The notes beneath the pieces were generated by a model. The model had not been told where the DNA came from, ran no database searches, and saw nothing but the letters and a program-made list of their open reading frames with translations. Made by a program: the position numbers and the translations under genes. Source: an uncultured cyanobacterium (GTDB lineage Bacteria; Cyanobacteriota; Cyanobacteriia; Cyanobacteriales; CAWUOF01). From it: a DNA stretch of 64,000 nt. The stretch covers positions 4,288,001 through 4,352,000 of the forward strand of contig CAVUSO010000001.1 in the NCBI GenBank assembly GCA_963744145.1, read 5' to 3'. How positions within the stretch are numbered: the stretch's first letter is position 1; each line of letters opens with the position of its first letter. This document shows positions 7,116-56,060 of this stretch, piece by piece.

Positions 7116-7377
7116 TTAAGCCCGATACTTAAATTAATTAGATTAGCGATCGCTATCCTAGACAAAACCAAGACCGCGGGCATTTTGGCATCGCGATCGC
7201 TCTTTCTACTGATGTCCCTATATTATTCTCTGATGAAGGTTTGAAATATTTCTAACTTTTTGCCGGCTATGCTGGTTTTATTGGAAATTGGGAGGGATCG
7301 CTTGCTCAAGCGTAGACTTTTGATATTGGGACTCTGGTTATTCTAAAGGCGATCGCCACCTCACCCCGTTTAAATTT

Positions 7378-7620
7378 ATGCTGAAACAAATCTTGACCTT
7401 AATTTTGGTACTGGTAGCAATTACGGCAACTCTATTGTTTTTTGATATTGGCCAATTACAAGCCGCCCAAGATTGCAATAAGTCTTACCCAGATGTCTGT
7501 ATTCCTTCACCTCCTCCTGATTTGGATTGTAAGGACATAAGTTATCGCAATTTTAAGGTTTTACCTCCTGACCCACACAAGTTCGATCGGGATAAAGATG
7601 GTGTTGGTTGTGAGCGGTAG
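7378..7620 (+). CDS. Secreted Excalibur-like Ca-binding domain protein
   Basis: Signal peptide; CxxSYPDVCIP...DLDC...DRDKDGVGCE. Confidence 0.75.
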   Translation: MLKQILTLILVLVAITATLLFFDIGQLQAAQDCNKSYPDVCIPSPPPDLDCKDISYRNFKVLPPDPHKFDRDKDGVGCER

Positions 7621-7768
7621 TTTTGAGATGGGGCGATCGCTATTGTCCCACACACATTAACCCTAATTTTGGTATTAAAAAGCATACATATAGGATAAGA
7701 CATGAGCTAGAATAAATCAGAATGTCTGAAGTGTAAAGAATTAATCTATTACCAATAGCATCTTCACT

Positions 7769-9175
7769 CTAGTTTATACTCAAGGAAGGAAAACGAGGCA
7801 TCATGCAGTAGGGACAATCTAACCATTCTAGTTGCAATCCTGCATCACAACCTTGACAGGTAAGATAGTTTTTTCGTTTAGCTTTGAGTTCTGCTTCTAA
7901 TCCAGAATCCATAAATGCAACTCGTTCTAATTCTTCAAAGGTAGTATAACCTTGGCGGACTAGGTTTAAACTGTAAGCCAGTAAGGAAACCATCCCTTCT
8001 TCTACTGCCGCTTCTTTAATCCGCTCTGTATTTGCGCCTTGGACAATTAAGGCTTTTATTCTTTCTGTTACTTTGAGGAATTCATAGACTCCCACGCGAC
8101 CATCGTACCCGCTCCCATGACATTTTTCACAAAGTTTATCTCCCATTTCCTGGCGCTGATTACCATGGATAGTATTAGCCTTATAGAAAACTATATCTAC
8201 TTCCTGAGAAGCAGATAGACCATAACGGGCTAATTCTTCTAGAGTGGGATTATAAGCAATTCGACAGCGATCGCAAACTCGACGAACTAGACGTTGGGCT
8301 AATATACCCAGCAAAGTCCCAGACACCATGAAGGGTTCACACCCCATTTCGTCTAAACGTGCGATCACACCGACAGCATGATTATTATAGAAAGCAGTTA
8401 AAACTAAGTTTCCCCTTAATGCTGCTTCTAATGCAGTTTTAGCTGTTTCCCGATCTCGTGTTTCTCCCACTAGGATGATATCTGGTCTTTGTCCTAAAAC
8501 AGCCCGGAGAAGAACATAGGAGGTTAAGTGTTTATCACGTATCACTTGACATTGATTAATCCCTGGTAAAGCCAATTCTATTGGGTCTTCAATAGTAATG
8601 ATATTAATTCCTGGCTCATTGCGTTCGGCTAGGATCGAATACAAAGTGCTTGATTTTCCTGATCCGCTTGGTCCTGTTACTATAATTAATCCGGAGGGAT
8701 GACTAGCTGCTTCTCTTACCAGGGCTAAAGTATCAGGATCTGTAATTAAATTATCTAAACCTATTGGGGGAATCGATTTATCGAGAATTTTTAGACAAAT
8801 TCTTTCCCCATAAAGACTAGGTAAACTATCAACCAGAAAGTCTACTATACGTCCTTGAAAAGTACGACGAATCCGACTAAATTGCGGTTGTCGTTGTTCC
8901 GCAATATCCATGTCGGAGATAAATTTAAACCGGGCGGTAATAGCTGGGACTACTTTTTTAGGTAATTGAAAATATTCTTGCAGTACCCCATCTTTCCGCA
9001 TCCGAATCCGCATAAATTCTTCTTGTGGTTCCACATGAATTTCCGAAACTTTTTCTACTAAAGCTTTAGCTAATATTTTGTTAACTGCATCAATAATTAA
9101 TGTGGAAGAAGCTTCTGACTTCGATAGGAGGGCGTCATTATCATCGCCAAAATCATTGCCTAAAGTAGATATCAT
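7769..9175 (-). CDS. PilB/GspE-family ATPase paralogue, N-terminally shortened
   Basis: Walker A GPSGSGKSST, TIEDPIE Asp box, DIILVGETRD, Cys-pair Zn motifs, cyanobacterial PilB1-like C-terminal tail. Confidence 0.85.
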   Translation of the reverse strand: MISTLGNDFGDDNDALLSKSEASSTLIIDAVNKILAKALVEKVSEIHVEPQEEFMRIRMRKDGVLQEYFQLPKKVVPAITARFKFISDMDIAEQRQPQFSRIRRTFQGRIVDFLVDSLPSLYGERICLKILDKSIPPIGLDNLITDPDTLALVREAASHPSGLIIVTGPSGSGKSSTLYSILAERNEPGINIITIEDPIELALPGINQCQVIRDKHLTSYVLLRAVLGQRPDIILVGETRDRETAKTALEAALRGNLVLTAFYNNHAVGVIARLDEMGCEPFMVSGTLLGILAQRLVRRVCDRCRIAYNPTLEELARYGLSASQEVDIVFYKANTIHGNQRQEMGDKLCEKCHGSGYDGRVGVYEFLKVTERIKALIVQGANTERIKEAAVEEGMVSLLAYSLNLVRQGYTTFEELERVAFMDSGLEAELKAKRKNYLTCQGCDAGLQLEWLDCPYCMMPRFPSLSIN

Positions 9176-9360
9176 AGAATATTTTTGATGGATAAATTTT
9201 GGTTAATGTCCTGTTTACTCTATTATATCTTGAGGGGTATGATCGCTATTCTCCTGATTGGGTTTTGGATAGGTGGGGGCGATAGCCAAGAAACCCGGTT
9301 TCTTTGCGTAAGTCCTAAAACATTGAAAAAAGCAATTACAAAGAAGGATGTCTGATTCAA

Positions 9361-9858
9361 TTATTCAATATTTTCAGGATTTTCAGGCAGATCGCTGTCA
9401 GTCGGTAAAAAATCAGGATTAAGAACTTCTTCTCCAGTAAAGGGAGACTCTGGGGGAAATATCACAATAGATAAACCTGTTTCACCTGCGGCGAGTTCCC
9501 TAGCATCTTGATAAGATTCATTAAAAATCTCTTCAAAAAAACGATATAAACTCGGACTGGTTTTGAAGGTATCTCGGATGCGTTTACGATGTTCTATAAT
9601 GGTGTAATGCCAACTATTTGTTCGTTTTCCCGGCTGATATTTATACTTGAGTAAGTGCATGAGAAGTACCCTCAAATTACTCTTTAAAGTATTTTTATCG
9701 CTTCTCCCCATACTTTCCAGTTCCTCTAGTAAGTTTTCTAAATCTATTTCGGCAAATTTTCCCTCTTTTAATAAGTTGATAGTTGTCTTTAACCACAGAT
9801 AAAAATCCTGTTCATAAAGGGATGTTATTGCAGTTGGTATTGATTTGATAGTTGTCAT
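9361..9858 (-). CDS. DUF29 family protein
   Basis: LYEQDFYLW...ENLLEELESMGRSD...LLMHLLKYKYQP pattern. Confidence 0.9.
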   Translation of the reverse strand: MTTIKSIPTAITSLYEQDFYLWLKTTINLLKEGKFAEIDLENLLEELESMGRSDKNTLKSNLRVLLMHLLKYKYQPGKRTNSWHYTIIEHRKRIRDTFKTSPSLYRFFEEIFNESYQDARELAAGETGLSIVIFPPESPFTGEEVLNPDFLPTDSDLPENPENIE

Positions 9859-9978
9859 TTTGTTTGACCCCCTTTCTCTTCTCTACACATAAGTGTAACA
9901 TATTCTATAATTTATCGCGATATGGTTCAATAAACCTTGACGATATGCTGTGGCTGGAGACCAGGAGAGTACCCAAAT

Positions 9979-10206
9979 CTAAACATGATAAGCAGTAATA
10001 GCAACAGTTCCATCAGGACTGTAAATAGCTTCAATGCGTCTAAAAGTAGAATGATTCCACCACACTTTCAGGCGATTTCCCTGAGCGGGAGCCGTACCAA
10101 TTTTAGCGTAACCGGCTCCTACTAGAAGTAACTCAAATTCTGTAGATGGCAAAGTTTTTACAGTAATTTGAGGGATACCATCAAGCTGATGCGTATCAAG
10201 GGTCAT
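9979..10206 (-). CDS. Hypothetical protein, second gene of an overlapping pair
   Basis: 75-aa ORF overlapping the upstream ORF by 11 nt. Confidence 0.6.
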   Translation of the reverse strand: MTLDTHQLDGIPQITVKTLPSTEFELLLVGAGYAKIGTAPAQGNRLKVWWNHSTFRRIEAIYSPDGTVAITAYHV

Positions 10207-11191: not shown

Positions 11192-11474
11192 AAAAAGCTG
11201 GCCGATCTAATATTTAAAATATAACTGTCTAATAGCCCATAAGACTACTGATTTGAACGCAAATACTCTTACAGTAATATTATTTCATAACTTTAATACG
11301 ATCGCACCTAATCAAATATTGAAATGCGATCGCTATTCCTAAATCCCACTAGACGGTTGATTTTAGTTGATGCGATCGCCATCTCCCCAACCAACTCCCA
11401 AACATCACTAACCACAACATCATTCACAACGCGATCGTTCTCCCAAAAATAATAATGCGATCGCCATAAATAAT

Positions 11475-13108
11475 TCAAGTTTCCGTAGCAAAATCTTCTG
11501 GGTCAATATCCCAGTTTACCCAGCGAATTGCTGCTCTAGCAGAATCAAGATCGGGTGGAACACGCAAAACGTGAATGTGAGCTGTACTTGGACAAGTCAT
11601 TTTTAGTAAATGTATGGGTTCTATATCAATATTTGCATCAATCTTGAGAAGGGTATATTCTCGATAGCGATCAATTTCGATTGCTCCTAGCTCTTGGATA
11701 ATGCGATCATACCCTAGCTGCCGAATCAATATTCTCCGAATTTCAACATTTTCTTCTGTAAGTAACCATTCGGCTTTCCACTGGTTTAAATGCGTCCAGT
11801 AGCGACGTGGAAGATTGACAGCCAAAACAGTAAACCTCCAAATATTGATTGGGATGGTTAGCTAAAATAGATAAATCTTCAATGGGGTTACCATTGAGAT
11901 CAAGCAATCCTAAAGACTTGAGCTGTCCTACCTCAATTGGTAAGCTGGTTAGTTGATTATTAGACAAATTAAATCTGTATAAAGACTGGAGTTGTCCTAT
12001 CTCAATCGGTAAGCTGGTTAGTTGATTATTAGACAAATTAAGTCTCTTTAAAGACTGGAGTTGTCCTATCTCTGCTGGTATGCTTGTTAGTCGGTTATCC
12101 CCCAGATAGAGCTTGGTCAAAGAATGGAGTTGTCCTATCTCTGCTGGTATACTTGTTAGTTGGTTATACCCCAAACAGAGCTGGCTCAAAGAATGAAGTC
12201 CCCCTATCTCGGTTGGTAAGCTTGTTAATTGGTTACCACACAGATAGAGTTCGTTCAATGACTGGAGTTGTCCTATTTCTGTTGGCAAGTGTGTTAGTTT
12301 ATTCCCATCTAGAAGTAGCGTTTGCAAAGAACAAAGTTTCCCTATCTCTGCTGGTAGACTTGTTAATTGGTTGCTATTTAAGCTGAGATGGGTCAAAGAA
12401 TGGAGTCGCCCTATTTCTGTTGGTAGGTGTGTTAGTTGGTTCTTGTCTAGGGATAGCGATTTTAAAGAATGCAGTTTTTCTATTACAACTGGTATATTAG
12501 CTAAATAGTTTCCAGCTAACGAAAGTGTGGTTAAATAAGGGAGTTGGCTGATTTCGTCTGGTAGGTGTGTTAGTTGGTTATTGTCTAGGGATAGCGATTT
12601 TAAAGAATGCAGTTTTTCTATTACAACTGGTATATTAGTTAAATAGTTTCCAGCTAACGAAAGTCCGGTTAAATAAGGTAGTTGGCTGATTTCATCTGGT
12701 AGATTTGTTAGTTGATTATTGTCTAGAAAAAGCCATTCTAAAGAATGTAATTGCCCTGTCTCTATGGATAAGCTTTTTATTTGGTTATCTTCTAAATGAA
12801 GAATCTCTTAAGTTGTGAATTTGCCATATTTCAGCTGGTAGGTGTGTTAGTTCATTTTTACTCAGGTCTAATTCTTTTAAAGAATCAAGTTGCCCGATCT
12901 CAGCTGGTAGACTTTTTATTTGGTTATCAGACAGACAAAGTTCGCTCAAATTTAATAGCAGTCCTATCTCTTTTGGTAAAGTAATCAACCCTTTACACCT
13001 GAAATTAAGTTCTGTTATATCTAAGTAATAATAACTAAGAATTATTGCTTGTACATCTTGCTCTGCCATAACCGAGCAACCATCAATTATTCCTTGTACA
13101 ACTTCCAT
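11475..13108 (-). pseudogene. Leucine-rich repeat protein with C-terminal DUF6745-like domain, split by two 1-bp frameshifts (about 12805 and 11822)
   Basis: 23-aa LPxEIGQLxSLxxLxLxxNQLT repeats continue across the three ORF fragments; C-terminus has EENVEIRR...LKMTCPST...HVLRVPP. Confidence 0.75.
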
Positions 13109-13740
13109 ATCCGATATCTTTTTCCTTTACTTTATGACTCATTGGTAATCCTAAAAAATGCGATCGCTGCTGATCTTTATAATTTTTTCTAATTCTGCGA
13201 CTAACTGGGTTGCCTTAGTGATACTTGCGATTGCTCTCTCTGCAACTTTCACCCAAGCAGCACTAAGCATAGACTAACTCACTGGGAGAAATTTGTCTAC
13301 TACTTGGCGATCGCCCACCCAAACTCAAATCTATCTAGCCCTTAATTATTTGACCTAATGGTTTAAATGTTTCTGTACTGCGATCTCCTTTTTACCCAAG
13401 CAATAATCCCGACGATGGCCCTAGTTACGACTGTCCACAGCCAAACTTGTTTTTTTTTCCTACTGAATGGGCGCAAGAACTCTGGCCCCCGTATATGTAA
13501 TTCATCGATCTGGGCGATGTCCCGAATTTCCTCATGATCGGGTGAGGGTATGCTTAGGTATATTGTTGGTTAGGGATCTTGTCGGTTATATTTATCTTGG
13601 TAAGAGGATATTTTCCCAAGTCCCTTCTTTATAAAATCCTCATCGAAACTTTACCCAATGCTTGCAATTACCTATTGACCTACAAGTAGAAAAAAATAGA
13701 TGATTAAGTCAATGAGATATTTACTGCAAGGGAAAAATCG

Positions 13741-39957: not shown

Positions 39958-42099
39958 ATGATGGTTACCTCAAAAAAAACTACGGTTCCTAAACTGTTTA
40001 AATTCCGACTTCGTGTTGCCATTGTGGTTCCTTTTGTTTTACAAATTGCGGCGACAGTGGGTTTAGTTAGTTATATCTCTTTCCGTAGTAGTCAAAAAGC
40101 TGTGAACGATCTAGCCATCCAATTGCGGAATGAGATCACAGCTCGGATTGATGGAGAATTGAGGAAATATCTTGAGAGTTCTCACAATTTTAATCGGCTC
40201 AATGCGGCGACATTTGCTCAAGGTAAGTTTGATCTCAAGAATGCTAGCAATGCCAAACAATTTCTTACTCAAATTGAAATTTCTCCTTTTATTTATTCAT
40301 CTTACTGTGGTGATTCCCAAGGACAATCTTTGGGTGCTTATCGCTTCATTGATCATGGTTCCTCAACCATTGCTATGTCTGTAAGTAATAAGGAAACTAA
40401 TTACAACTTTTTCTTTTATGCCATGGATAAACAGGGAAATAAACAACAAATTTTGGCTAAACTCAAACCCTATGATCCCCGTCAACGCCCCTGGTATATT
40501 TCTGCTGTCACTGCTAAACGAGCAATTTGGAGTGAAGTATATTTAGATTTCGCTAGTGGTCTCCCCACGATTACAGCGAGTGAACCAATATATGATGAAT
40601 CAGGGCAAAATGTTTTGGGAGTTTGTGCGACTGATGTAGTGTTGTTGAGCGATTTAAGGAAGTTTTTGGCAAACCTTTCGATTGGGAAGACAGGACGAGC
40701 TTTTATTATTGATCGGACAGGTGCTATGCTCTCGAGTTCAACGGACGAACCACTAACAGTGGGTGAGGGGGAAAATACTAAGCTGGTTCTTGCTGCAGAA
40801 AGCATTGAACCTTCCGTGCGTGAAACTGCTCGATATTTGCAAAAACACTTTGGCAGTTTTGATCGAATTGAACAATTGCAACAATTGGATTATCAGTTAC
40901 AGGGTGAACGACAGTATGTCCAAGTTTTACCGTTGAATGATGGGAAAGGGATCGATTGGTTGATTGTGGTGGTAGTACCGGAAACTGATTTTATGGCACA
41001 AATTAATGCCAATACTCGCAACACAATTTGGCTAACTTTGGCAGCTTTGGGATTGGCGATCGCGATTGGTATTTTCACCGCTCGTTTGATTACCCATTCT
41101 GTGTTCAGATTAATTCAAGCATCTCAAGAGATTGCTAAAGGTAATTTAGAGCGACAAGTATCCACGGTTAATGTAATCGAAATTGAAGAAATTGATACAT
41201 TAGAAAATTCATTCAACACCATGGCAGCACAACTTAAGGAATCCTTTGACAAACTTACTTCTGTAATTTTTCAGGCTGAACAAGTTGGGAATCAAATCAG
41301 TTTATCGACCAATCAAATTGTAACTGCTAATCAGCAAATAGAAGCTACTGCGATCCAGCAAGCTACTTCAACCAATGAAGTCAGAGCTACAGCTCATCAA
41401 ATTGCCTCTACCTCCGGACAATTAGTCAACAAGATGGAAAATATTGTTGAACAAGCTACCACCACAGAACTGTCAGCTAGTCAGGGTCAAAAAGGTCTAT
41501 TGGAAATAGCTCAGGTAATGGAACAGTTAGTAAGGTCTACTAATTTGATTGCTTCTCAGTTGGGAATGATGAATGAAAAAGCAAATAGCATCAGTAGTGT
41601 GGTACTCACCATTGCCAAAGTAGCAGACCAGACTAATTTAATTTCTCTTAATGCTACGATTGAAGCAGAAAAAGCTGGAGAAGCTGGGGTCGGTTTTGTG
41701 GTGGTAGCTAGAGAAGTGCAGCGATTAGCTGATCGTTCGGCTGCGGCTTCTCGTGAAATTGAGGATATTGTTAAGGATTTGCAATCTTCTGTGGCTCAGG
41801 GGGTGAACGAAATGGATAAGTTCAGTCAACAAGTGAGCTACTATGGGTTACAGGTAGGTCGCATTAGTGGGCAGATTGCCCAGGTGATTCAGCAAGTCCA
41901 GAGTCTGACACCCCAATTTCAACAGATTAGTTATAGTATGGAAGGGCAATTTGCAGGGGCTCAGCAAATTAGTTTCGCGATCGCTCAATTAAGTGAAGCT
42001 TCTCAACAAACTGTGCTATCTTTACAAGAAACTAATCAGGCTCTGAAGGAATTAAATGATACCGCACAAGAGCTGCAAAATCTGGTTAAATCCAGTTAG
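39958..42099 (+). CDS. Methyl-accepting chemotaxis protein (Cache-HAMP-MA)
   Basis: YDPRQRPWY Cache motif, [24 protein letters not shown] signalling tip. Confidence 0.92.
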
Positions 42100-42185
42100 T
42101 AAGTCAAAGCTTTTGTGGCATGGCAATCTTTAGTTTAACCCTACTTCAATTCTCTAACTTACCACTTGTCAACATCTAATAATTC

Positions 42186-42497
42186 TCAGATTAGACGGTG
42201 GTATTTAAAGATGGTGGCACGATGACCGACGCTGATAAAAGTTCTGTGGGTTTCTAACAGATGCTGATCGAGATTTTCCTCATTTTTAACATCCAAAGCG
42301 CTAGGAGCTTCATCTAAAATTACATACTTGGGTTGAGAAATTAAGAGACGAGCAAAAGCAATGCGCTGTTGTTCTCCTAAGGAAAGCACATCACTCCCAT
42401 CTTTTTCCACATCAAAACTACCGCATCTTTCAACTAAATTGGGGAGGTTGACCTTTGGCAATACTTGCTCTAGTTCTTGGTCGCTGATAGGTTTCAT
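42186..42497 (-). pseudogene. 3' fragment of an ABC-D/YddA-type ABC transporter
   Basis: LSLGEQQRIAFARLL...VILDE...ISVGHR, with no Walker A or TM domain. Confidence 0.8.
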
Positions 42498-42505
42498 TAT
42501 CGATA

Positions 42506-43429
42506 CTAAGAGAATAGTTCTGCGGAATGTTTGTTATCTATTATTCTCCTTAAAGATAGCCGGCTTAGAAATATTCGGATTTTTATCAAAAAGTAGAAAA
42601 TAAAACTTAATAAATGATGCAATTGCCCGCGTTTAGAAAGCCCTAAAATAGGGACTAGAAAGTTGAAGATATAATAAATATGTTTTCTTTCATAGAGCGG
42701 ATACATTTTGCTAATATAAGTATTAGTTTCTTTACTTTTAATATACTTTTCTTGTTTCAGGTAAGAACCTACGCAAAATGAAGCATAAATAATTTGGTCA
42801 TCTTCTAATTCAAAAACTCGTTTGACTAAAACTAGCAGTTTGTTAAAAATGTTAATTTTCTCCGTTTTTTGACATTCTTGCAAAAATCTATAAAACATTC
42901 CATAATGACGGGCTTCGTCCTTCGACAAGCGATCACAAATATCACGTAAAAGAGGTTCTGGTGTGCGATCGCGAATCGCTGCATAGTAAGCACTTGCTAA
43001 TGCTTCAATAACACAACGAGCAATTAATTCATTGGCAATAGAACCTCGAACAGAAACTCCAGTTTCTGAATGATATTGAACAGTTTCTATATACTTTTTG
43101 TATAACTCTTCAAAATTGAAATCAGGATCTACTAGCTGACTCCATTTTTGCAGAGCTTGTCCATGTTGTCTTTCTTCTAAATTCCAAATATGAATCAATC
43201 TATGCCAATCGCTTTTACTATAAAATACTGAAATTAAGTAGGAAGAGTAAAGGTCTGCACGGGACTCAATTAAACAAGTTGCTTTAATTATATCAACTAA
43301 GTCACTAGAAACTTGCTCGCTATTAAAAAGGCTTAAATTAAGCTCTTGAATATCCCACTTTTTTAAAGAATCTAAGTTAGCATTTTCCCATATACACTCT
43401 TTAAATTCTTGCATACTTTTTTTCACCAA
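42506..43429 (-). CDS. Ferritin-like di-iron protein (acyl-ACP desaturase-like)
   Basis: IES...EERQHG...CVIE...DEARHY di-iron ligand pattern; AT-rich. Confidence 0.8.
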   Translation of the reverse strand: MVKKSMQEFKECIWENANLDSLKKWDIQELNLSLFNSEQVSSDLVDIIKATCLIESRADLYSSYLISVFYSKSDWHRLIHIWNLEERQHGQALQKWSQLVDPDFNFEELYKKYIETVQYHSETGVSVRGSIANELIARCVIEALASAYYAAIRDRTPEPLLRDICDRLSKDEARHYGMFYRFLQECQKTEKINIFNKLLVLVKRVFELEDDQIIYASFCVGSYLKQEKYIKSKETNTYISKMYPLYERKHIYYIFNFLVPILGLSKRGQLHHLLSFIFYFLIKIRIFLSRLSLRRIIDNKHSAELFS

Positions 43430-43828
43430 AATAAATAACTGGACAGTGCGAAGTTCTGGAAAGCGTAGGCTAGATTACCATCATTAGGCAAGCGATGCAA
43501 GAATTTGTTATAGCTCACAGCAAAAGTTTTGAATTTTTTCAAACCTTCATAAGAAAATAATACTGGACAATGAGGGCGATCGCAATTCTCAGTAAATTAA
43601 GCTCTGCTGCTACTGAGCGCAATCGCTTTTAGTTTGATTGTGGGGTTTAGTGCGATCGCTATTAGGTTACTACTGGGACAGATTGAAAGCGATAAGTATT
43701 TTGTATTGCCGCCCTCTATTATAGTGAGGATAAAACTACTTAAACGCTTTCTTACTAATCTTTTCAGCGTTTTAGCAACATTGTGGACTGATGAGTAATA
43801 AATGTTTACAATTAATTCTAAAAATTAG

Positions 43829-44005
43829 TTGACAAAACCTAATAGATGTTTTAGGATGATAATGGTAGCTGTTTAAGCTAAACGCAAGCACAAGCTTGGG
43901 TTTACATCGCATAAACACTATACCAGTACCTTGATAATTCTATAGTTATTCGGCTGCCCTAAGAATAGGTAGTACCACCTAGTCTGCTTATGCAGTATAA
44001 AGCTT
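43829..44005 (+). ncRNA. Candidate multi-branch structured RNA behind a sigma70 promoter
   Basis: TTGACA-N17-TAGGAT; aagctt (43892) and aagctt (44000) enclose about five short hairpins. Confidence 0.35.
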
Positions 44006-44478
44006 TTGGAAAGTTAGGTTTTAATTGTTTCGTTTCCATAATCTTTATACTGCATGACCAGGTTATGTGTTGCTACATATTCTTATGCCAGTTTAATAAC
44101 CATATTTTATATATTCTAATTAGTATTACTAGTTTAATTCTACTATTTTTTCCTGGAATTTATGTAGTAAATCGTTTAATATTTATAAATTACATAATTG
44201 CAATTGAGAACTGTTCAGCAGCTACAGAAGGATTGAGTCGCAGTTGGGAATTAACAAAAGGACATTGGTGGTTAATATGGCGCTCTAGTTTACTGTTGTC
44301 TCCTATATTTTTTATAGGAGGTATTTTAATCGGATTGAATCCGAAATCAATACAACCAATACTGTTTCAGGTAATAATGTTTTTGGGTGTACCTTTAATA
44401 AAGGTTAATTTTGTAATTTTGTATATGCGTCTAGCTAACCGAGATAAAAATACAAACTTTTGCACAGGGAGACCCTAA
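43990..44478 (+). CDS. Membrane protein, probably 5'-truncated (GDPD-membrane-domain-like)
   Basis: PGIY...E...GLSRSWELTKGHWW motif in the C-terminal part; the N-terminus looks non-coding. Confidence 0.45.
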   Translation: MQYKAFGKLGFNCFVSIIFILHDQVMCCYIFLCQFNNHILYILISITSLILLFFPGIYVVNRLIFINYIIAIENCSAATEGLSRSWELTKGHWWLIWRSSLLLSPIFFIGGILIGLNPKSIQPILFQVIMFLGVPLIKVNFVILYMRLANRDKNTNFCTGRP

Positions 44479-44560
44479 TTAAAGATAAAATAATCGGCAA
44501 ATTAGCGTGGATTTAATACGACTGTTACTTTGTTCTCTAAAAAACTAATGGAAAAAGACT

Positions 44561-45238
44561 ATGAATCGTCGTGAATTTTTAGGTTGGACAAGTGTTGGTG
44601 CAGTAGCGATTTCTTTACCACAAGCTTACAACGCTTGTCTCGCCGACTCCCAAAACTCTTTGGTATTTAATTTGGGCACTAGCGTTCTGCATCGTGGAGA
44701 TTACTTTCCTATTCCACAATTGGATCTTCATGCTACTAGCTTCACTATTGCTACTAAAGTTAACCTTGACTCTACAGAAAATCGGAATATTATTCTAGGT
44801 AACTGGAGCAGCAACCAAAATGCTTGGCAATTACTCTTTGCAATCAATGCTGGTGGTCTTCCTGCGATCAATCTCCGCAAAGATTTACCAACTGACGGGT
44901 CAGATCCAACTCAGGATTTAGTCGCATTAGTAGGAACAACCACAGTAACGGCTGGTGAATGGCATCATGTAGCAGTTACCTTTAGCTGGGGTGCAGATAA
45001 TACTACCCCAATAGCTACCCTTTATGTTGATGGAAAAGAAGCAGGCAGTGTTTCACCTAAAATATCTCCTGACTCACGAGTACATAATCCCTACACTCTT
45101 AAACCTAGTCCTAATGCTTATCTGATTGGTCATAAGGAAGATGGCACTGGGGATGATGACTGGTTTGCTGGACAGTTAGCTAATTTTCGCATCTATACTG
45201 TTGCTTTGACTGGTGCGGAAATCTCTACTTTGCTCTAA
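44561..45238 (+). CDS. Tat-signal LamG/concanavalin-like domain protein
   Basis: MNRREFL twin-arginine leader; WHHVAVT...LYVDG...FAGQLANFRIY. Confidence 0.8.
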   Translation: MNRREFLGWTSVGAVAISLPQAYNACLADSQNSLVFNLGTSVLHRGDYFPIPQLDLHATSFTIATKVNLDSTENRNIILGNWSSNQNAWQLLFAINAGGLPAINLRKDLPTDGSDPTQDLVALVGTTTVTAGEWHHVAVTFSWGADNTTPIATLYVDGKEAGSVSPKISPDSRVHNPYTLKPSPNAYLIGHKEDGTGDDDWFAGQLANFRIYTVALTGAEISTLL

Positions 45239-45740
45239 TTTAACTTTCAATAAATGCGTACACTGTCGAGAGTAGTTTGACACTAATTTTGGTAATACGA
45301 TCACATTCTATTCTTATTGGCCAAATTAGAATAGTGATGTTGATTGCACCGGGGTCTAATCTTGAGTTTTTGTTGGGCGATCGCTATTTCACACTGGGGA
45401 ATTTGTCCAATTTGTCGTCTGCTGCTGCTACTGAATTTTGCCAGCGGTGTTTTTGCTCCTGGTTGAGATGACTACCAGTTTTGCACCGGGAAAAATTTTG
45501 TTTTGGGTTCTGGTGTGCGATCGCCAATCACCATCCAAACTCACCAACACCCTAAACATCTAATTTTCCTGAAACTGCCAGAAATATTCAAATTCTTCCC
45601 AAACCTCAATCAAGCTAAACTCTATACTCAGTAACCATTTGAGCTAATCTCACCGCACCGGCTGCACAGCTTCATTTTGGCGTGAACAATTTTGTAGGGG
45701 CGTATTGCAATACGCCAGTACAATTTTTATTTGGGTGCGA

Positions 45741-46070
45741 TTATCTGCGACCCGAAGCAACAGGGCGCTGGTATGGTGGATTATATTGCGGACTATAGCC
45801 GATCGATGGTCGAGAGGGAGTATAGATAGTAATTGTACGGGGTTGATGTTGACTAGGGTTATAGGTTGAAGGTGGAGTATAGGAACGAGCAGGCGCTGTC
45901 GGTGGTTTGGCATTGCACATACTTGATAGATCAATTGTTTTACCGCTAGAGGTAGTAATAAAACAACCTTGAGTCTCCTGGGCATTCACTAGACTGATGG
46001 GACAAACAATAGTTGAAACCAATATCCCGAATAGCAAACTTTTCATAGTTATTAGCAGAAATCTATACAT
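45741..46070 (-). CDS. Small secreted hypothetical protein
   Basis: Signal peptide, CFITTSSGKTIDLSSMC motif, Pro-rich tail. Confidence 0.65.
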   Translation of the reverse strand: MYRFLLITMKSLLFGILVSTIVCPISLVNAQETQGCFITTSSGKTIDLSSMCNAKPPTAPARSYTPPSTYNPSQHQPRTITIYTPSRPSIGYSPQYNPPYQRPVASGRR

Positions 46071-46432
46071 ATATTTTATCTAACGAAAGTAATATTTAAG
46101 TGAGGAAATTTAAAATATTTGTCAAGGAGTATTAAAGTTTTAGTAATTGTGCCGATCGCTACCAAACCTAATGGGGCAAACTAGACACCAGAACAAAACT
46201 AGCGATCGCTCCAAAACATTTAATCTCTACAGCAGCAGTTCCGTCGCGGCTTGAAGCTGTGCAAACTATCAATCACTTACTAGCTAAAGCTTTTGTCTTT
46301 CTGGTAATGAGTTTATTTGATGCGATCGCTCTTGCAAATTAGTTGGACAAATTAGTAAGTACAAGCAACCCACAGAAGTTCACCTGGTGTCGGATTTTGC
46401 CATCGGTGATTTTAGCTTTGGTCTTGGTGGGA

Positions 46433-46515
46433 GCGATCGCCCCCAATAAAGACCACAACGGGAAAATTGCAATCAGCTATTGCTGTGGTCTTAGTGCTGA
46501 AAATTGGGATTAATC
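46433..46515. repeat. 83-bp direct repeat, copy 1 (starts at HIP1)
   Basis: Near-identical to 48002-48084. Confidence 0.9.
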
Positions 46516-46517
46516 CT

Positions 46518-47255
46518 CTAAAGAAGAGAGAAGAGAACCACCCTCCCCCACACCCCGTCCGCATCATCCCCTCTCCCTCCTGCACACACATCATCCCTAC
46601 ATGCAAGCCCCTCTAACCAAGGGAGGTGACATTCAGGAGCCGAGATATTAAAAGTGAGATCAGAGTAGCTCAACCTGTGGCGTCCTTTTATCCAGCCGAC
46701 TTGATATTCTAGTTTAACATAGGTATGGGAATCAAAACTACCATCTAGCTTACCACCCAGGTTGAGCCAGATTTCCTTCTGGACTGAAAATCCAAATTTA
46801 CCGTGAGAATGTTTTAACCACAACTGGTCGATAATATGTAGTTCCTCTTTGGGAAAATTACGACAATTTTTCACTGTTAACCATCCCCCTTCTTCCCTGT
46901 TCATAATTTTTAACATTACTCGACGAGTTTCTTCATCTGCGTCTTTCCATTCTTGGGCTGCTAATAATTTATCTAGTTGTCTGAAATCAGCTCTAGAAGT
47001 AACTAAATTTATTTGGGGTGACTGAGGTGTTTGCGTTACATCAAGATTTACTTGGGGAGTATAATAATCGATCGCTTTCTGAGGTGGTTGACTCTGTGCA
47101 ATTAGAGTAGCAGAATTACTAAATAGCCTTTGTGGATAATTAGCAAAAACTATACTAGACCAAAAAGGAAGTATCATTAAACTTAATCCTAAGTATTTGG
47201 CTGTATGTATCATCAGGTTTCTGTCTCCTTTATTCAAAAATATTAGATTTTGCAC
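46518..47255 (-). CDS. GUN4 domain protein with N-terminal hydrophobic segment
   Basis: LLAAQEWKDADEET...IDQLWLKHSHGKFGFSVQKEIW...HLP. Confidence 0.85.
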   Translation of the reverse strand: MQNLIFLNKGDRNLMIHTAKYLGLSLMILPFWSSIVFANYPQRLFSNSATLIAQSQPPQKAIDYYTPQVNLDVTQTPQSPQINLVTSRADFRQLDKLLAAQEWKDADEETRRVMLKIMNREEGGWLTVKNCRNFPKEELHIIDQLWLKHSHGKFGFSVQKEIWLNLGGKLDGSFDSHTYVKLEYQVGWIKGRHRLSYSDLTFNISAPECHLPWLEGLACRDDVCAGGRGDDADGVWGRVVLFSLL

Positions 47256-47264
47256 TTTCCTAGT

Positions 47265-47900
47265 TTAGGTAAACTGAAATGTTGAAAGTATTTGCTGAAA
47301 AATAAGATTTTCTTGACCATAATCTGGCTTTTCACATACACCGTAATACCTACCAATGTCAACTAAATAACGTTTGTCAGGTGTAAAAAATCTAGCATTA
47401 ATAAAACAATCTGGTGGTTGTACACGCATATACTTTCTCTTATAAATAATAGCTTCTTGATTAGCAATAGTAGCCGTTGACTCAGAATAAGAAGGATAAA
47501 TACCATCTGTTAAATTTACATATCCTGATTGAATAGGAGTTATTTCAATAGAAACTTCGTGTACCCACACTGCTTCAGTACAACCTGGAGAGGGATGGTC
47601 TTGACAACATTTAATTTCGGCGAAAGTTCCTGGATCTATTATTGTTACACTAACCGACCCACCGGATTTACTCTTTCTTTTTTCAGTATGATAATTAGCA
47701 GGAATTTGAAACTTAATCCCAAACTCTGGTATTTCAATTTCACGACTTTCTGATGCAGGTGTTTGAAAAACGTAAGCACAATCCTCTTGTTGAGCATTTA
47801 CTGGATTAAATGGAAAAGCAAATACCGAACCTAATACCGTTACCGTAGTAATTGCCCCAAATAATGGTTGTTTTCCCATAACCCTACCCAGACATAGCAT
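47265..47900 (-). CDS. Secreted Cys-rich hypothetical protein
   Basis: Signal peptide, EFGIKFQIP, C-terminal FQQILSTFQF. Confidence 0.7.
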   Translation of the reverse strand: MLCLGRVMGKQPLFGAITTVTVLGSVFAFPFNPVNAQQEDCAYVFQTPASESREIEIPEFGIKFQIPANYHTEKRKSKSGGSVSVTIIDPGTFAEIKCCQDHPSPGCTEAVWVHEVSIEITPIQSGYVNLTDGIYPSYSESTATIANQEAIIYKRKYMRVQPPDCFINARFFTPDKRYLVDIGRYYGVCEKPDYGQENLIFQQILSTFQFT

Positions 47901-48001
47901 CTAAATCTACATCTGGAAGATAGCCTAACTTTTATGCAAAACCTACCAACTTTGCAACAAAACTTTATATATTCAAGCAATAGTCCCAGTTGGGAGATAT
48001 G

Positions 48002-48084
48002 GCGATCGCTCCCAATAAAAACCACAACGGGAAAATTGCAATCAGCTATTGCTGTGGTCCTGGTGCTGAAAATTGGGATTAATC
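48002..48084. repeat. 83-bp direct repeat, copy 2 (HIP1 on both sides)
   Basis: Near-identical to 46433-46515; a second HIP1 at 48089-48096. Confidence 0.9.
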
Positions 48085-48221
48085 ATCGGCGATCGCTTCT
48101 TAATCAATGTGGCCATAATTTCTCTGAACCATCGGTATTTGGTAGCGATCGCGCCCTAATCCACCAGTCCTGCAAACTTGGAGAGAAATACCGCAGCGGA
48201 TTAATAGCGATCGCTCTAAAC

Positions 48222-48581
48222 CTAATAATGATGCTCATCCTCTAAAACATCAGGAAAAATATATCTCTCCTCAATCCCCAACTCATCAAAATTAATATTT
48301 TTGTCATACAAAAAATCGTAAATCTCTAAAATACATAACTCAGCTAGTTTCCTATATCTCTTTAATCGTGCTGCTTTTGTCCTATTTGTTGCTTTCTCCT
48401 CATTAAGTTTTTTCTCAGGCTGCTCCTCTGACGGCAAGGTAACTTCTTCAGACTTTGTTCTCCCACTTTCAGCTTTAGCAATTCGTAAAGCAAGCCTATC
48501 AATTAATTCATCTAACATTTGCTGATTTTTTAATAATTTTGATTCAGCTACTCGATCACAACTCAATGTGATCGCTCTCAA
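48222..48581 (-). CDS. Hypothetical protein
   Basis: 119-aa ORF with aggag RBS upstream of a TTG start. Confidence 0.55.
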   Translation of the reverse strand: MRAITLSCDRVAESKLLKNQQMLDELIDRLALRIAKAESGRTKSEEVTLPSEEQPEKKLNEEKATNRTKAARLKRYRKLAELCILEIYDFLYDKNINFDELGIEERYIFPDVLEDEHHY

Positions 48582-48668
48582 TATCCTACTCCTAAACTTG
48601 CTGGTAAAGATTGCGATCGCGTTAACCTCAATATCTTATTACGACTCAATGCGATCGCAAATCATTTA

Positions 48669-48878
48669 TTAATCAAGCAACTGATAAGTTTTGGTTAGGT
48701 ATTGAATCAGTTGGTAGAGACTTTCTTGAATGATGCGATCGCTCTCAGGATCAGCATTTTCAAACTCGCTCATAGTTTGAATAAGTTTCTCTAACTGAAC
48801 CTTAGCTAATTGACAACGTTCATAAACCTGATCCTCTATTGGGCTAAAGGTTGTCCTCATTTTGATGATATAGGTCAC
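48669..48878 (-). CDS. Small hypothetical protein
   Basis: 69-aa helical-looking ORF. Confidence 0.4.
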   Translation of the reverse strand: MTYIIKMRTTFSPIEDQVYERCQLAKVQLEKLIQTMSEFENADPESDRIIQESLYQLIQYLTKTYQLLD

Positions 48879-48917
48879 AGCGACAACTGGATAGCGATCG
48901 CTTCAATCAAAAGCAAC

Positions 48918-49038
48918 GGATAAGTTCAGTCAACAAGTGAGCTACTATGGGTCACAGGTTGGTCGCATCAGTGGTCAGATTGCCCAGGTGATTCAGCAAG
49001 TCCAGAGTCTGACACCCCAATTTCAACAGATTAGTTAT
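48918..49038 (+). pseudogene. Duplicated 121-bp fragment of the MCP gene
   Basis: Near-identical to 41814-41934. Confidence 0.9.
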
Positions 49039-49039
49039 T

Positions 49040-49927
49040 TTTAATATGCAAAGCGCTAGTAGCTTCATCTAAAATTACATACTGGGGTTGATAAATTAAG
49101 AGACGAGCAAAGTTCTTGGTCGCTGATAGGATCATTTACCAGAGGATATCCTAACTGTTGGCGGAGATTTCCCAAAACCATATAAGGACGTTGAGGTAAA
49201 AATAAGATTTCCTCTAGTTTGGGTCGGATAATTGTTCCACTACCAGAATTCCATAAACCCGCGATCGCTCGTAATAGAGAACTTTTACCACAACCACTTT
49301 TACCCATAATTACCATTCCTTGTTTTGAGGGCACTTTTACCGAAATATTCTGAAATAAGATTCTTTGATAGTTTGGTGTATACAAGGTCAGGTCTTGGAG
49401 TGTTAAACAGCTATCTTCTAAGATATTAATAGTTGTATCCTGAATGCTCCCATTAGTAATTTCTCTCTTTGGTTGTTGCAGAAAATTATAAAATTCATCT
49501 AAACGCTCAATTTCGGCAGCAGGTTATCAATTTCTCTCTGAGATTGACTGAGTTCATAAAACGCCCGATTGCGGAAATATTGACTGAAAAAATGCTTGCT
49601 TAACCACCTACGCCAATATAGACCGAGTTTTTGGCGGATGTAGTTGTGTGCGGCCCAAATAGCCCAGATCATTAGGTATAGCCCAGTCAATTTCCAGGTA
49701 ATTGCCCAGAATTGATTCCCATCCTGAGCCGCGATGACGGAAAGGACTTTACCCTGTTTAGTATTGGCGAGTACGGTGAGATTGGCCGAAACTAGAATAC
49801 TGGCAATCAGCGTCAATAGTAAAGCGATCGCACCCCATTTTTCCTTGCTATACCAGTAGAGTTTAGCGATCGCCCAAAACCTCTGAAAAAAACTCCGGTT
49901 CAGTTTATTCATTTTGTTAGTCGTCAT
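49040..49927 (-). pseudogene. ABC-D/YddA-type ABC transporter pseudogene with two internal deletions
   Basis: N-terminal TM part to IDN, jump to AAEIERL..., Walker A GKSGCGKS, LPQRPY, jump from DQEL to FARLL...VILDEATSAL. Confidence 0.85.
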
Positions 49928-50703: not shown

Positions 50704-50713
50704 CTTTATCCAC

Positions 50714-51169: not shown

Positions 51170-51197
51170 CTGGTTTAGCTGATCTGATTGAGAAACA

Positions 51198-52725: not shown

Positions 52726-52845
52726 ATGACACCATCTTTAGCTAATCTTTTCTACAGCCTACTTTGGGGAGCCGTTATTGTCGTTATCCCTACGACCGTG
52801 GGACTAATTTTTGTCAGCCAAAAAGATAAAGTTCAACGGTCCTAA
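52726..52845 (+). CDS. psbX: Photosystem II protein PsbX
   Basis: [15 protein letters not shown]...[11 protein letters not shown], 39 aa. Confidence 0.93.
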
Positions 52846-52907
52846 ATTTTTAGTGGGGTAATTAGCAGGAGAAAGCAGGGCTGTTTTATGCTAGGTCACT
52901 AAATGCT

Positions 52908-53026
52908 GACCTAACCCCCCAACCCCCTTCCCTACCAGGGAAGGGGGAGTAGTTAAGATGACTAAATTGATAGGAGATTTATTCTTGCTCCCCTTTCCTC
53001 TTAGGAGAGGGGTTGGGGGAGAGGTC
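52908..53026. repeat. REP-like paired palindromes (cccccttccct...agggaaggggg family)
   Basis: Two facing GC-rich hairpins between psbX and ycf66. Confidence 0.7.
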
Positions 53027-53131
53027 TTCTGCTAGAATGAAACAAGCCCTGAAATTGACTGATATCTTGCCGTCTATAGTAGATATATTTATAGGAACTC
53101 GCTAACATAGGACTGTCTTAGGAGAGAGGTT

Positions 53132-53923: not shown

Positions 53924-54037
53924 GTTCAGTGGAGTGCTAATTTTAGCCAATATTAACCAATCTACTGGTATTTTCCAGTAGGTTGGGAGGAAAAAAATTC
54001 TGTTCGCGGCTAATTGCGGAAATTGAGAAAGTTCGCG

Positions 54038-54598
54038 ATGCTTGTAAAAAAATATTATTGGCAAAAGGCAAAATTAGGTTTATGGGCAAGTCTAGCTGGT
54101 ATGATGGTGGCTTGTACCGCTAATAATTCAATAGGACCAGTTTCAATTAATAGTCGCTATACTGATGAACAACCGACTTTAAGTGGAAATGGTCGGTTTT
54201 TAGCTTTCGTTTCTAATCGCAATGGTCGTCGCGATATTATGTTGTATGACTTACAACAGCAGCAGTTTGTCGATGTTCCAGGATTAAATCCGAATGGGGC
54301 GATCGCGGAAAATCCCAGTCTTAGTTATAGTAGTCGTTATATTGTTTACCTGACTAGCGACCAAGGAAAACCGATTATTGTTCTGTATGATCGGACGATT
54401 AAGCAAGCACAGATTCTCACTCAAGGTTATTGGGGTTGGGTCAGAAATCCCAGTATTAGTCCTGATGGTCGTTATGTGGTGTTTGAAACCAGTACCAGGG
54501 GACAATGGGATATTGAGGTACTCGATCGCGGTCCGAATATTGAACTAGATCGAGTTGAGGGGAATACATCGGAAACTGGGATCAAAAATTCACTGTAA
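54038..54598 (+). CDS. TolB-like PD40-repeat lipoprotein
   Basis: Lipobox MVAC; PD40 repeats (PSISPDGRYVVF). Confidence 0.85.
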   Translation: MLVKKYYWQKAKLGLWASLAGMMVACTANNSIGPVSINSRYTDEQPTLSGNGRFLAFVSNRNGRRDIMLYDLQQQQFVDVPGLNPNGAIAENPSLSYSSRYIVYLTSDQGKPIIVLYDRTIKQAQILTQGYWGWVRNPSISPDGRYVVFETSTRGQWDIEVLDRGPNIELDRVEGNTSETGIKNSL

Positions 54599-54613
54599 TT
54601 AGGTCGGATCACT

Positions 54614-55150
54614 GTGAAAAATTTTGTCAGATCATCGGGTTGGTTATGGATGGTAGCGATCGCTTCTTTATTAAGCAGTTGTAGTAGTTATCCCCGTTTA
54701 CTGAGTTTTCCCTTTGATCCGGGGGGAAGAAGTTTAAATAGTCCTTCATCCCAATTAACTCCGAACATATCTGGTCGCTATATTGTATTTGTGTCCGATC
54801 GCAGTGGGACTCAAGATATTTATCTGTTTGATGGGATTGATCAAAGATTAATCGATTTACCAGGATTAAATTCACTAGATGCGATCGCTTCCCATCCGGG
54901 TATTTCTGGAGATGGACGTTATATCGTTTTTGCTGCTACTCGTCAGGGACGTTCTGGGATTTATTTATACGATCGAGAAACTCGTCAATTGCGTAATCTC
55001 ACGGAAAACCTCCAAGCTGAAGTGAGAAATCCGACTATTAGTGCGGATGGTAATATTATTGCTTTTGAATCTAGTGCTAATGGTCATTGGGATATTTTAG
55101 TTTACGATCGAGCTGGTCAACCCTTAAATGTACCGATCAATCCACGCTGA
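54614..55150 (+). CDS. TolB-like PD40-repeat lipoprotein
   Basis: Lipobox LSSC; PD40 repeats. Confidence 0.85.
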   Translation: MKNFVRSSGWLWMVAIASLLSSCSSYPRLLSFPFDPGGRSLNSPSSQLTPNISGRYIVFVSDRSGTQDIYLFDGIDQRLIDLPGLNSLDAIASHPGISGDGRYIVFAATRQGRSGIYLYDRETRQLRNLTENLQAEVRNPTISADGNIIAFESSANGHWDILVYDRAGQPLNVPINPR

Positions 55151-55291
55151 TTTTAGTTGAGGAAACATCCCTGCGTAAGTTCTGAATAATACATTTCTAC
55201 TGGACTGGCGATCGCTAAGTATTATAGAAAGGTTAAAAACCTGCTATAATATAATGTTAGTTATCTATGTTGACAAAGTGAGGTAATCATT

Positions 55292-55589
55292 ATGTTATCA
55301 ATCGATATTAGACCAGAATCAATAGTTAAAAGAATTGAGGATACTGTTTCCATTTTAATGGAAGAACACCCTTTGTTCAAGGAAGATTCTGAATTATTCA
55401 GAAATCGTAAACCATTTAGTTCAAGTATTTCAAAAAAACTTATCTTTTGAGGAATTTAGTATGATGTCAGAGACAAACTTGAAAAAACGTTGTAGTCGGA
55501 TAATGGCGATCGAACTTTTGGGAAAAATTAGTGAAGACTTTACCCCTGAACAAATGGCGATTTTTGAAGAAGCAATCAAACGTAAATAG
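55292..55589 (+). pseudogene. Putative antitoxin with a 1-bp frameshift at about 55380
   Basis: gagg RBS + MLSIDIRPE...HPLF; the shifted frame continues KILNYSEIV...FTPEQMAIFEEAIKRK and ends 11 nt before the VapC-type gene. Confidence 0.6.
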
Positions 55590-55600
55590 ATTCTGAGATT

Positions 55601-56002
55601 ATGAGTTATTTATTAGATACTAATATTGTTTCTTTTGCGATTCGGCGAAATTCTCAAGTCCTTCAAAATATTAAAAAAGTTGAAACTGAAGAAAATATCT
55701 TCATTAGTTGCATTACCTATTTTGAAATTAAGCGAGGATTTTTAGCGGTTGATGCTCCTAAACAAAAGGCAAGATTTGAAGAATTTTGTCAAATTTATCC
55801 GATTATTTTATTAGATGATTTAGAAATTTTAGAAAAAGCATCCGAAATTTATGCTAATCTGAGATTAAGAGGTTTGCCGATCCAAACTGAAGATATTTTA
55901 ATTGCTGCTACTGCTATAGTTAAAGGTTTAATTATGGTTTCTAATGATACAGATTTAGTAAGAATTGAAGGTTTAAATTTAGAAAATTGGGCTCAATTAT
56001 AA
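55601..56002 (+). CDS. vapC: VapC-family PIN toxin
   Basis: YLLDTNI, YFEI, DILIAATA, SND motifs. Confidence 0.9.
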   Translation: MSYLLDTNIVSFAIRRNSQVLQNIKKVETEENIFISCITYFEIKRGFLAVDAPKQKARFEEFCQIYPIILLDDLEILEKASEIYANLRLRGLPIQTEDILIAATAIVKGLIMVSNDTDLVRIEGLNLENWAQL

Positions 56003-56060
56003 AGCGATCGCACCGGATGATATGGTTGATGAAAAATCGAGGATTGATGGAAGCTAAGAT

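Follow-up and report, generated by a model that had tools for sequence, protein, structure and literature searches.

In a cyanobacterial chromosome rich in HIP1, several small accessory genes lie between copies of this octamer within a stretch of 64,000 nucleotides of the main contig, C1 (C1:4288001-4352000, the whole of which is referred to here as the window). HIP1, the octamer GCGATCGC, is palindromic and abundant in cyanobacteria. This raises the question of whether genes in this chromosome are gained and lost as HIP1-to-HIP1 cassettes, like those of an integron but with no local integrase, as a sequence-only reading of the window had proposed, or whether HIP1 takes part in rearrangement in some other way. 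We found that HIP1 sits exactly at homology boundaries 8 to 12 times more often than the background and is a recurrent recombination joint, and that one unit in the window, the toxin-antitoxin pair vapBC, is a genuine HIP1-to-HIP1 unit inserted into a trio of PD40 genes. The general cassette model was largely refuted by a genome-wide permutation of HIP1 positions.

HIP1 at homology boundaries

Close relatives of this genome are lacking in the collections, and intragenomic duplicates were therefore used for the analysis of boundaries; the nearest reference genome is ~78% identical in argH, with synteny lost, and metagenome contigs reach at best 80% protein identity. The genome comprises 7.70 Mb with a G+C content of 39.4%, and the main contig carries 7760 GCGATCGC sites, or one per 984 bp. 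Comparison of the genome with itself by megablast gave 90,888 non-self high-scoring segment pairs (HSPs) on the main contig. From these we took a low-copy set of 2072 HSPs of at least 80 bp, defined by an overlap of no more than three HSPs, with 3906 unique ends. At 66 of these 3906, HIP1 is inside the aligned block and flush with its end, and at 28 more it is one base further in (94 HIP1 ends in total), against a background of ~5.6 per offset. The excess at exact ends is thus 11.5-fold; when four other low-copy filters were applied the ratio was 7.5 to 8.9, and high-copy repeats gave 3.9. Both copies carry the octamer at 91 of the 94 HIP1 ends. Identity at these ends is 0.81 inside and 0.28, which is random, in the 30 nt outside, and all ten joints that were inspected base by base break off abruptly at the outer edge of the octamer in both copies.

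Among the 8-mers that terminate the low-copy duplicated segments, HIP1 is the most frequent, and its one-mismatch variants show little excess at ends (7 versus 2.7 expected). By identity class, HIP1 ends at offset 0 number 20 of 1985 (75 to 85%), 20 of 951 (85 to 92%), and 26 of 721 (92 to 97%). Grouping gave 45 independent families of joints; of the 104 sites involved, 80 are intergenic. Among 1372 unique HSP pairs, 56 have at least one end on HIP1, with 34 pairs in direct and 22 in inverted orientation, and 35 of them link sites more than 100 kb apart; HIP1 occupies both ends in three pairs, compared with 0.63 expected if the ends were independent. As a separate observation, the next commonest terminal words, TCAGTCCC (57 ends) and CTTTCTCA (42 ends), are nearly absent inside segments and therefore look like the termini of specific families of repeats or mobile elements.

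Twenty local direct-repeat pairs (15 merged loci), bracketing 0.1 to 8 kb, have one end on HIP1. We scanned 58 of the 69 open reading frames (ORFs) from 13 of these loci and from the region of the vapBC paralogue with Pfam. The genes enclosed by HIP1-ended direct repeats are of small accessory types, including XisI (one such gene lies between HIP1-ended direct repeats at C1:7136253-7137071), a FitA-like antitoxin, and DUF29. The fetched loci also hold ParE/YhaV, Phd/YefM, DUF433, Uma2, GUN4, and an NB-ARC ATPase, together with many ORFs that have no Pfam match.

Within the window, the clearest case is the vapBC unit on the plus strand (55208-56014), which runs from a HIP1 at 55208-55215 to a HIP1 at 56004-56011 plus 3 nt and which was delimited by a second genomic copy. 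That copy (C1:4768086-4768820) is ~81% identical and lies in inverted orientation. At the right edge both copies read TTATAAA-GCGATCGC-ACC and diverge beyond it; at the left edge the HIP1 of the window is aligned to GCGATCGT in the second copy, and similarity is lost upstream. The left HIP1 and GCGATCGT stand at an equal distance of 19 nt from a promoter-like box conserved in both copies, and a TATAAT-like box is conserved upstream of vapBC in all four intragenomic copies. As the sequence-only reading had noted, the unit contains no HIP1 of its own (none in 55216-56003). The second copy lies amid xisH/xisI pairs, one intact and one fragmentary, next to a DUF4058 gene (C1:4766500-4772500), and several short HIP1-ended repeats map to C1:4771820-4771946. 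We saw neither terminal inverted repeats nor a target-site duplication at the ends of the vapBC unit, of the Excalibur block, or of the GUN4 unit described below.

The gene content agrees with a type II toxin-antitoxin layout, a PIN toxin preceded by a small antitoxin gene. The toxin gene vapC (55601-56002, plus strand; Pfam PIN, E = 4.6e-13) is followed by HIP1 beginning 1 nt past its stop. The vapB-like antitoxin gene (55292-55586, plus strand), identified by tblastn with the 98-residue ORF of the paralogue, lies in two frames that break at about 55387, with residues 1 to 32 in frame 2 and residues 33 to 98 in frame 3. A contig of a public sequencing run (X1) is one base shorter at 55387, and the frame break is therefore likely an assembly indel. 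In that run the stretch is identical and shows no joints; the run is probably the source sample, and it has no bearing on excision or absence. Two other runs (X2 and X3) hold next to none of the stretch.

The claim that vapBC splits a TolB-like trio was borne out. Pfam identifies PD40 domains in genes 1 and 2 (54038-54598 and 54650-55150), upstream of vapBC, and in gene 3 (56061-56552), downstream of it, all on the plus strand. The trio is contiguous and free of vapBC in 11 relatives, comprising 5 reference genomes and 6 of 41 metagenome loci, the other 35 loci lacking gene 3 in the DNA examined. This uninterrupted arrangement in the relatives identifies vapBC as an insertion.

A second unit, absent from the genes that the sequence-only reading had listed, has a HIP1 at its start and another at its junction. 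The GUN4 unit (46433-48087) extends from HIP1 to HIP1 over 46433-48001 and is followed by an 86-nt repeat (48002-48087) of its own first 86 nt; the two are 94% identical, and both begin exactly with HIP1. A further HIP1 follows the repeat at 48089. The unit, recognized by this intragenomic repeat, holds a gene with a Pfam GUN4 match (46518-47213) and an ORF of 204 residues (47265-47879), both on the minus strand.

Gene ends and accessory loci in the window

The sequence-only reading started from five accessory genes that have HIP1 within 12 nt of the stop codon and another HIP1 upstream. All of the HIP1 coordinates that it gave are exact copies of GCGATCGC, and the distances from stop to HIP1 are as claimed, at 12 nt for the Excalibur-like ORF (7378-7620), 10 nt for the leucine-rich repeat (LRR) gene (11475-11825), 7 nt and 10 nt for two small ORFs (48222-48581 and 48669-48878), and 1 nt for vapC (55601-56002). 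A sixth gene, which runs off the left end of the window, has HIP1 9 nt past its stop. The observation is accurate, yet it is unusual only locally. That the five are unrelated accessory genes is only partly borne out: the PIN domain of vapC is confirmed, the two small ORFs have no homologue, the LRR gene is split, and the Excalibur match is marginal.

Genes were called over the whole contig with a crude caller of our own (codon log-odds score and greedy choice among overlapping ORFs), which gave 6321 genes covering 82.8% of the contig, and in 1000 rounds every intergenic HIP1 was given a random new position inside the intergenic region to which it belongs. A gap of 0 to 12 nt from stop to HIP1 was found for 116 of the 6321 genes, compared with 114.4 ± 8.9 expected (P = 0.46). 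HIP1 within 60 nt upstream of the start was depleted (268 versus 383 expected), and HIP1 on both sides, near the stop and within 60 nt upstream of the start, was found for 16 genes versus 10.6 ± 3.0 expected (P = 0.06). Most HIP1s near stop codons are explained by the intergenic density of HIP1, an outcome that the sequence-only reading had itself named as counting against its model. In the window, 6 of 61 genes have a HIP1 near the stop versus 2.47 expected (P = 0.017) and 3 have HIP1 on both sides versus 0.35 expected (P = 0.002), both values being uncorrected and obtained in a window picked post hoc; 3 of 947 overlapping 64-kb windows reach six near-stop genes.

Accessory and core genes were approximated by copy number, length, coding score, and lack of an internal HIP1. 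Near-stop HIP1s were found for 31 of 1064 multi-copy genes versus 85 of 5257 others (p = 0.008) and for 64 of 2495 genes of at most 200 amino acids versus 52 of 3826 longer ones (p = 0.0007), a 1.8- to 1.9-fold excess by either proxy, and no difference was seen among the 6321 called genes by coding score or for genes without an internal HIP1. The signal for accessory genes obtained with these proxies is weak. For annotation, the presence of HIP1 next to the end of a gene should not on its own be taken to indicate a mobile cassette.

The density of HIP1 forms the background to these counts. The window holds 85 HIP1 sites, compared with 0.25 expected from shuffles, and over the whole contig HIP1 is denser in intergenic (1.255 per kb) than in coding sequence (0.967 per kb). 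Genome-wide spacing is approximately Poisson, with short gaps only 1.13 to 1.15 times as frequent as expected. The densest HIP1 stretches of the chromosome, at C1:18304-19987 and C1:7624864-7626544, show an exact 120-nt HIP1 period over 1.7 kb and are probably tandem arrays with HIP1 inside the unit. Once these arrays are set aside, a cluster of 8 sites in 900 bp (48002-48901) is among the densest stretches of the chromosome.

This cluster contains the two small ORFs named above. They have no homologue except themselves in a search of 5.8 billion proteins made with these forms of the ORFs, no Pfam match, and no intragenomic paralogue, and thus show no sign of being genes or of having moved; ORF 48669-48878 also has an internal HIP1 at 48735. 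The cluster lies inside the rearranged region of a broken ABC-transporter gene (42162-49912, minus strand; Pfam ABC_membrane_2 and ABC_tran), which is in three pieces, with residues 1 to 129 at 49912-49523, residues 319 to 452 at 49520-49110, and residues 447 to 555 at 42488-42162. The gene has internal deletions, with ~6.6 kb between pieces, and it is accompanied by the rearranged repeats D1 (41806-41934 = 48910-49038) and D3 (42282-42356 = 49037-49111). The segment 48910-49111 holds rearranged copies of the 3' part of the ABC gene and of the 3' part of the neighboring MCP gene.

At the other proposed cassettes, homology does not stop at the HIP1s that had been named as their boundaries. The Excalibur-like ORF is part of a duplicated block (7335-7744, plus strand) that is 84% identical to C1:7268289-7268726; homology extends 14 nt past the left HIP1 (7349) and 104 nt past the right HIP1 (7633), and the second HIP1 is disrupted in the paralogue. 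Its Pfam match scores 22.3 bits against a cutoff of 22 and covers the last 13 residues only. The LRR/DUF6745 gene (11326-13167, minus strand, including a mosaic 3' flank), defined by Pfam and by alignment with its paralogues, is in three ORF pieces (11475-11825, 11743-12396, and 12785-13108). Its identity to three paralogues falls stepwise at HIP1s at 11457, 11372, and 11326, from 88 to 91% in all three over 11465-11560 to 68%, 45%, and 33% over 11380-11456. Since the step at 11457 falls just 10 nt away from the stop codon, loss of coding constraint is a confound. No HIP1 occurs within 11465-13159, in agreement with the sequence-only reading.

Two further genes had been described as beginning just after a HIP1. 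One, labeled a HEPN gene (58312-59103), has no Pfam match even at an E value of 0.1, and that label was not upheld. The other is a methyltransferase ORF (63466 onward; Pfam N6_N4_Mtase). Directly upstream of it lies a 265-nt partial duplicate of a Uma2 gene region (63170-63434, plus strand), which corresponds to 60803-60925 plus 61101-61244 with 92% identity and has a 175-nt internal deletion relative to 60803-61244. The duplicate contains the HIP1 at 63420, and homology stops 7 nt beyond it; Uma2 is the other Pfam match at this locus.

The proposed cassettes lie on both strands, scattered over 49 kb. Pfam scans of 65 ORFs of the window turned up no domain of an integrase, recombinase, or transposase, and the XisI gene at 60442-60777 does not encode a recombinase. 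The 40-nt flanks of 12 cited HIP1 sites have nothing in common beyond the octamer and show no attC-like pattern, and an extended consensus around HIP1 was rejected. The idea that HIP1 belongs to a tRNA or other known RNA was also rejected, as ARAGORN found no tRNA gene and Rfam gave no match at gathering score within the window.

In other respects the window is an ordinary part of a HIP1-rich cyanobacterial chromosome in which core genes alternate with small accessory or decayed islands. The core genes, identified by Pfam, include argH, a PilT-type ATPase, an M50 peptidase, dnaK, dnaJ, prfC, phytoene desaturase and synthase, sensor kinases, and MCP. The dnaJ gene is in two ORFs (region 27841-28849), with the J domain at 28469-28849 and the C-terminal domain at 27841-28251; this split, the frameshifted vapB, and the three-piece LRR gene suggest single-base assembly indels or real pseudogenes. 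A repeat of ~240 bp that resembles a miniature inverted-repeat transposable element (57904-58142) lies between a succinate dehydrogenase-like Fe-S gene and the ORF labeled HEPN; it has well over 100 copies over the main contig and contig C2, at 74 to 99% identity, and bears no relation to HIP1. An inverted repeat of 72 nt, 78% complementary and with a 20-nt spacer (43941-44104), overlaps the start of ORF 43990-44478. At 52908-53045, two short pieces (~35 to 45 nt, 85 to 90% alike) are matched by contigs of unrelated G+C-rich organisms in three soil runs, which produces a depth spike; neither ARAGORN nor Rfam finds an RNA there.

Origin of the joints

We regard HIP1 as a preferred joint of ordinary short-homology (illegitimate) recombination, passive through its abundance, and assign this reading a probability of about 0.55. 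With ~7,800 identical palindromic copies, HIP1 is by far the commonest microhomology available, usable in either orientation, and no other word would so often form the start or end of duplications, dispersed copies, patch replacements, and deletions. The joints may have formed through RecA-independent microhomology recombination or template switching at HIP1; by an alternative route, a circle closed at HIP1 and reintegrated by a single crossover would leave the same direct-repeat scars. Tandem duplications between HIP1s would later decay, and vapBC would represent a dispersed copy. The products in the window would then be the vapBC pair in the PD40 trio and the GUN4 unit with the repeat of its own start, and no HIP1-specific enzyme would be needed. 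Of all pairs of identical 8-mers on the chromosome, 3.3% are HIP1 pairs, and 1.7 to 2.4% of ends and 4.1% of HSP pairs fall on HIP1; given that the joint share is close to the share of 8-mer pairs, plain microhomology recombination suffices.

Several points weigh against this reading. The match between the two shares is rough; in reality, shorter homologies also serve illegitimate recombination, and some HSP ends will not mark a recombination joint. Only 2 to 4% of homology ends fall on HIP1, and in HSPs of at least 97% identity none of 249 ends has HIP1 at offset 0. All of the evidence comes from one genome, with gene calls that rest on the crude caller. In the window, the deletion joints of the ABC gene and the D1 and D3 repeats are not on HIP1, and of the five proposed cassettes only vapBC has both homology ends on HIP1; the LRR gene ends stepwise at several HIP1s and the Excalibur block ends off HIP1. 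Outside this genome, the spacer between PD40 genes 2 and 3 contains HIP1 in none of the 11 uninterrupted trios, which come from distant relatives (58 to 69% protein identity in gene 3) with spacers that cannot be aligned, so that this count is neutral as to whether the original target had a HIP1. The vapBC copies in three other genomes, also of distant relatives, are without HIP1 at either end.

The sharpness of the spike, which falls exactly at the outer edge of the octamer, would also be expected if HIP1 were recognized or cut by a dedicated activity and segments were exchanged preferentially from HIP1 to HIP1, whether by site-specific recombination, by an endonuclease acting on CGATCG or GCGATCGC whose compatible ends are rejoined, or in a step of methylation or natural transformation. 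The presence of HIP1 at both ends of vapBC and the count of HSP pairs with HIP1 at both ends (3 versus 0.63) point the same way, as do reports of site-specific plasmid recombination in Synechococcus PCC 7002 and of a precise SDR5 insertion inside HIP1 (both as described in PMC4390886) and of a boost that HIP1 gives to natural transformation, dependent on homology and methylation (bioRxiv 10.1101/2024.09.10.611283; PMC13756078). Such a process would, however, be hard to square with a joint share not above the 3.3% that HIP1 contributes to 8-mer pairs, with HIP1 at one end only in 53 of the 56 HIP1-ended repeats, with the lack of a recombinase gene in the 65 window ORFs scanned, or with the similarly low frequency of excision between HIP1s reported for Escherichia coli and Synechococcus (Robinson et al. 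1997, as described in PMC4390886), and we consider it unlikely. Another explanation is the proposal that accessory genes in general come and go as HIP1-to-HIP1 cassettes, integron-like and with no local integrase. The geometry of vapBC and of the GUN4 unit fits that proposal, as do the three window genes with HIP1 on both sides and the somewhat higher frequency of near-stop HIP1s in multi-copy genes and genes of at most 200 amino acids, but the genome-wide counts near stops (116 versus 114.4) and on both sides (16 versus 10.6; P = 0.06) and the lack of a link to low coding score or to HIP1-free genes do not. Its idea of HIP1-to-HIP1 units held for vapBC and failed for Excalibur and LRR, where homology runs past the named HIP1s, and for the two small ORFs, which are without homologues; with no common flank beyond the octamer, no integrase, and a promoter-like box belonging to vapBC itself, the proposal is highly improbable as a general model.

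Coincidence or an artifact of alignment is the explanation to which we give the least weight. HIP1 is dense here, and conserved HIP1 islands in diverged flanks could pull BLAST ends toward them. Purifying selection has been reported to act on HIP1 in both coding and noncoding sequence (Xu 2018, via PMC13756078); an exact 8-mer can carry a megablast extension over a few mismatches, and the window was picked post hoc from a very large scan. Against this, the excess is 12.2-fold among ends with at least 90% identity over the neighboring 30 nt (28 of 1582 ends), and the sequence adjoining HIP1 ends is no less identical than that adjoining the remaining ends. The random identity outside the ends, the abruptness of the inspected joints, and the small excess of one-mismatch variants likewise run counter to it.

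There is a further possibility, which we put forward as speculation and think rather improbable: that HIP1, beyond being an abundant microhomology, serves as the docking point of an integrase-free, distributed copying or import of small accessory modules in polyploid, transformable cyanobacteria. The modules would be toxin-antitoxin pairs, xisH/xisI, DUF29, Uma2, and the like, and segments circled or cut at HIP1 would be integrated; the product would have either a HIP1 at each end or a short direct repeat of which one end is on HIP1. If this were true, the puzzle of what HIP1 does, now 30 years old, would be linked to gene flow and to the recent findings on transformation.

Comparison with known systems

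Integron gene cassettes, which depend on IntI and the sites attI and attC, resemble the units described here in being small one- or two-gene units between copies of a short palindromic sequence. Integrons have the tyrosine recombinase IntI beside the array and, at the end of each cassette, an attC site, an imperfect inverted repeat of tens of bases with a conserved structure, whereas neither was found in the scanned ORFs or the flanks of the cited sites. Integron cassettes are also mostly promoterless and lie in one orientation behind a common promoter, whereas the units here are not arrayed in this way, vapBC carries a promoter-like box of its own, and the joints concerned are only a few per cent. 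The label integron-like is not warranted, and the gene flow that the sequence-only reading had proposed under that label did not hold up.

Campbell-type insertion-duplication and homology-facilitated illegitimate recombination during natural transformation provide a general comparison. The resemblance would lie in the direct repeats of 83 to 367 nt (one of 2.7 kb) that bracket gene-bearing segments of 0.7 to 8 kb here, and in repeats of which one end is at a HIP1 microhomology and the other at the end of homology. The same layout could arise if a stretch between two HIP1s were duplicated in tandem and then partly deleted; neither a donor nor a circle was observed here.

HIP1 at joints is shared with the site-specific recombination of plasmids in Synechococcus PCC 7002 (Akiyama et al. 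1998; PMC4390886) and with S. elongatus PCC 7942, for which HIP1 is reported ahead of an inversion (188.6 kb; PMC9239245). Taken together, PMC4390886, PMC9239245, and PMC5861425 describe HIP1 at joints of replicon recombination or ends of inversions, with PMC3025956 as a further source on HIP1. In the present genome the frequency of such joints is compatible with abundance alone, and nothing here shows site-specific activity.

HIP1 was discovered at a 352-bp deletion in smtB of Synechococcus PCC 6301, which it flanks (Gupta 1993, via PMC13756078), and a role in illegitimate recombination was proposed for it, with methylation and transformation work following later (PMC13756078). The present joints are like that deletion, and like the products of the excision assays, in that segments end on GCGATCGC, the octamer acts as a short direct repeat, and no recombinase is required, according to the accounts cited. 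The segments described here do end exactly on GCGATCGC, as seen for vapBC, for the 86-nt repeat of the GUN4 unit, and for 94 of the 3906 HSP ends. They differ from the smtB deletion in being duplications, dispersed copies, and an insertion, counted genome-wide (45 joints, 8- to 12-fold), and in that many pairs of sites are inverted or distant, usually with one end on HIP1. The kind of event has been known since 1993; what is added here is its genome-wide count and the layout of the accessory modules, for which we claim no priority. The function of HIP1 has been open for three decades, and a whole-chromosome measure is now given, with HIP1 the single commonest word at the ends of duplicated segments and 45 joints. 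Comparing the joint share with the abundance of HIP1 pairs across genomes would separate a passive from an active role.

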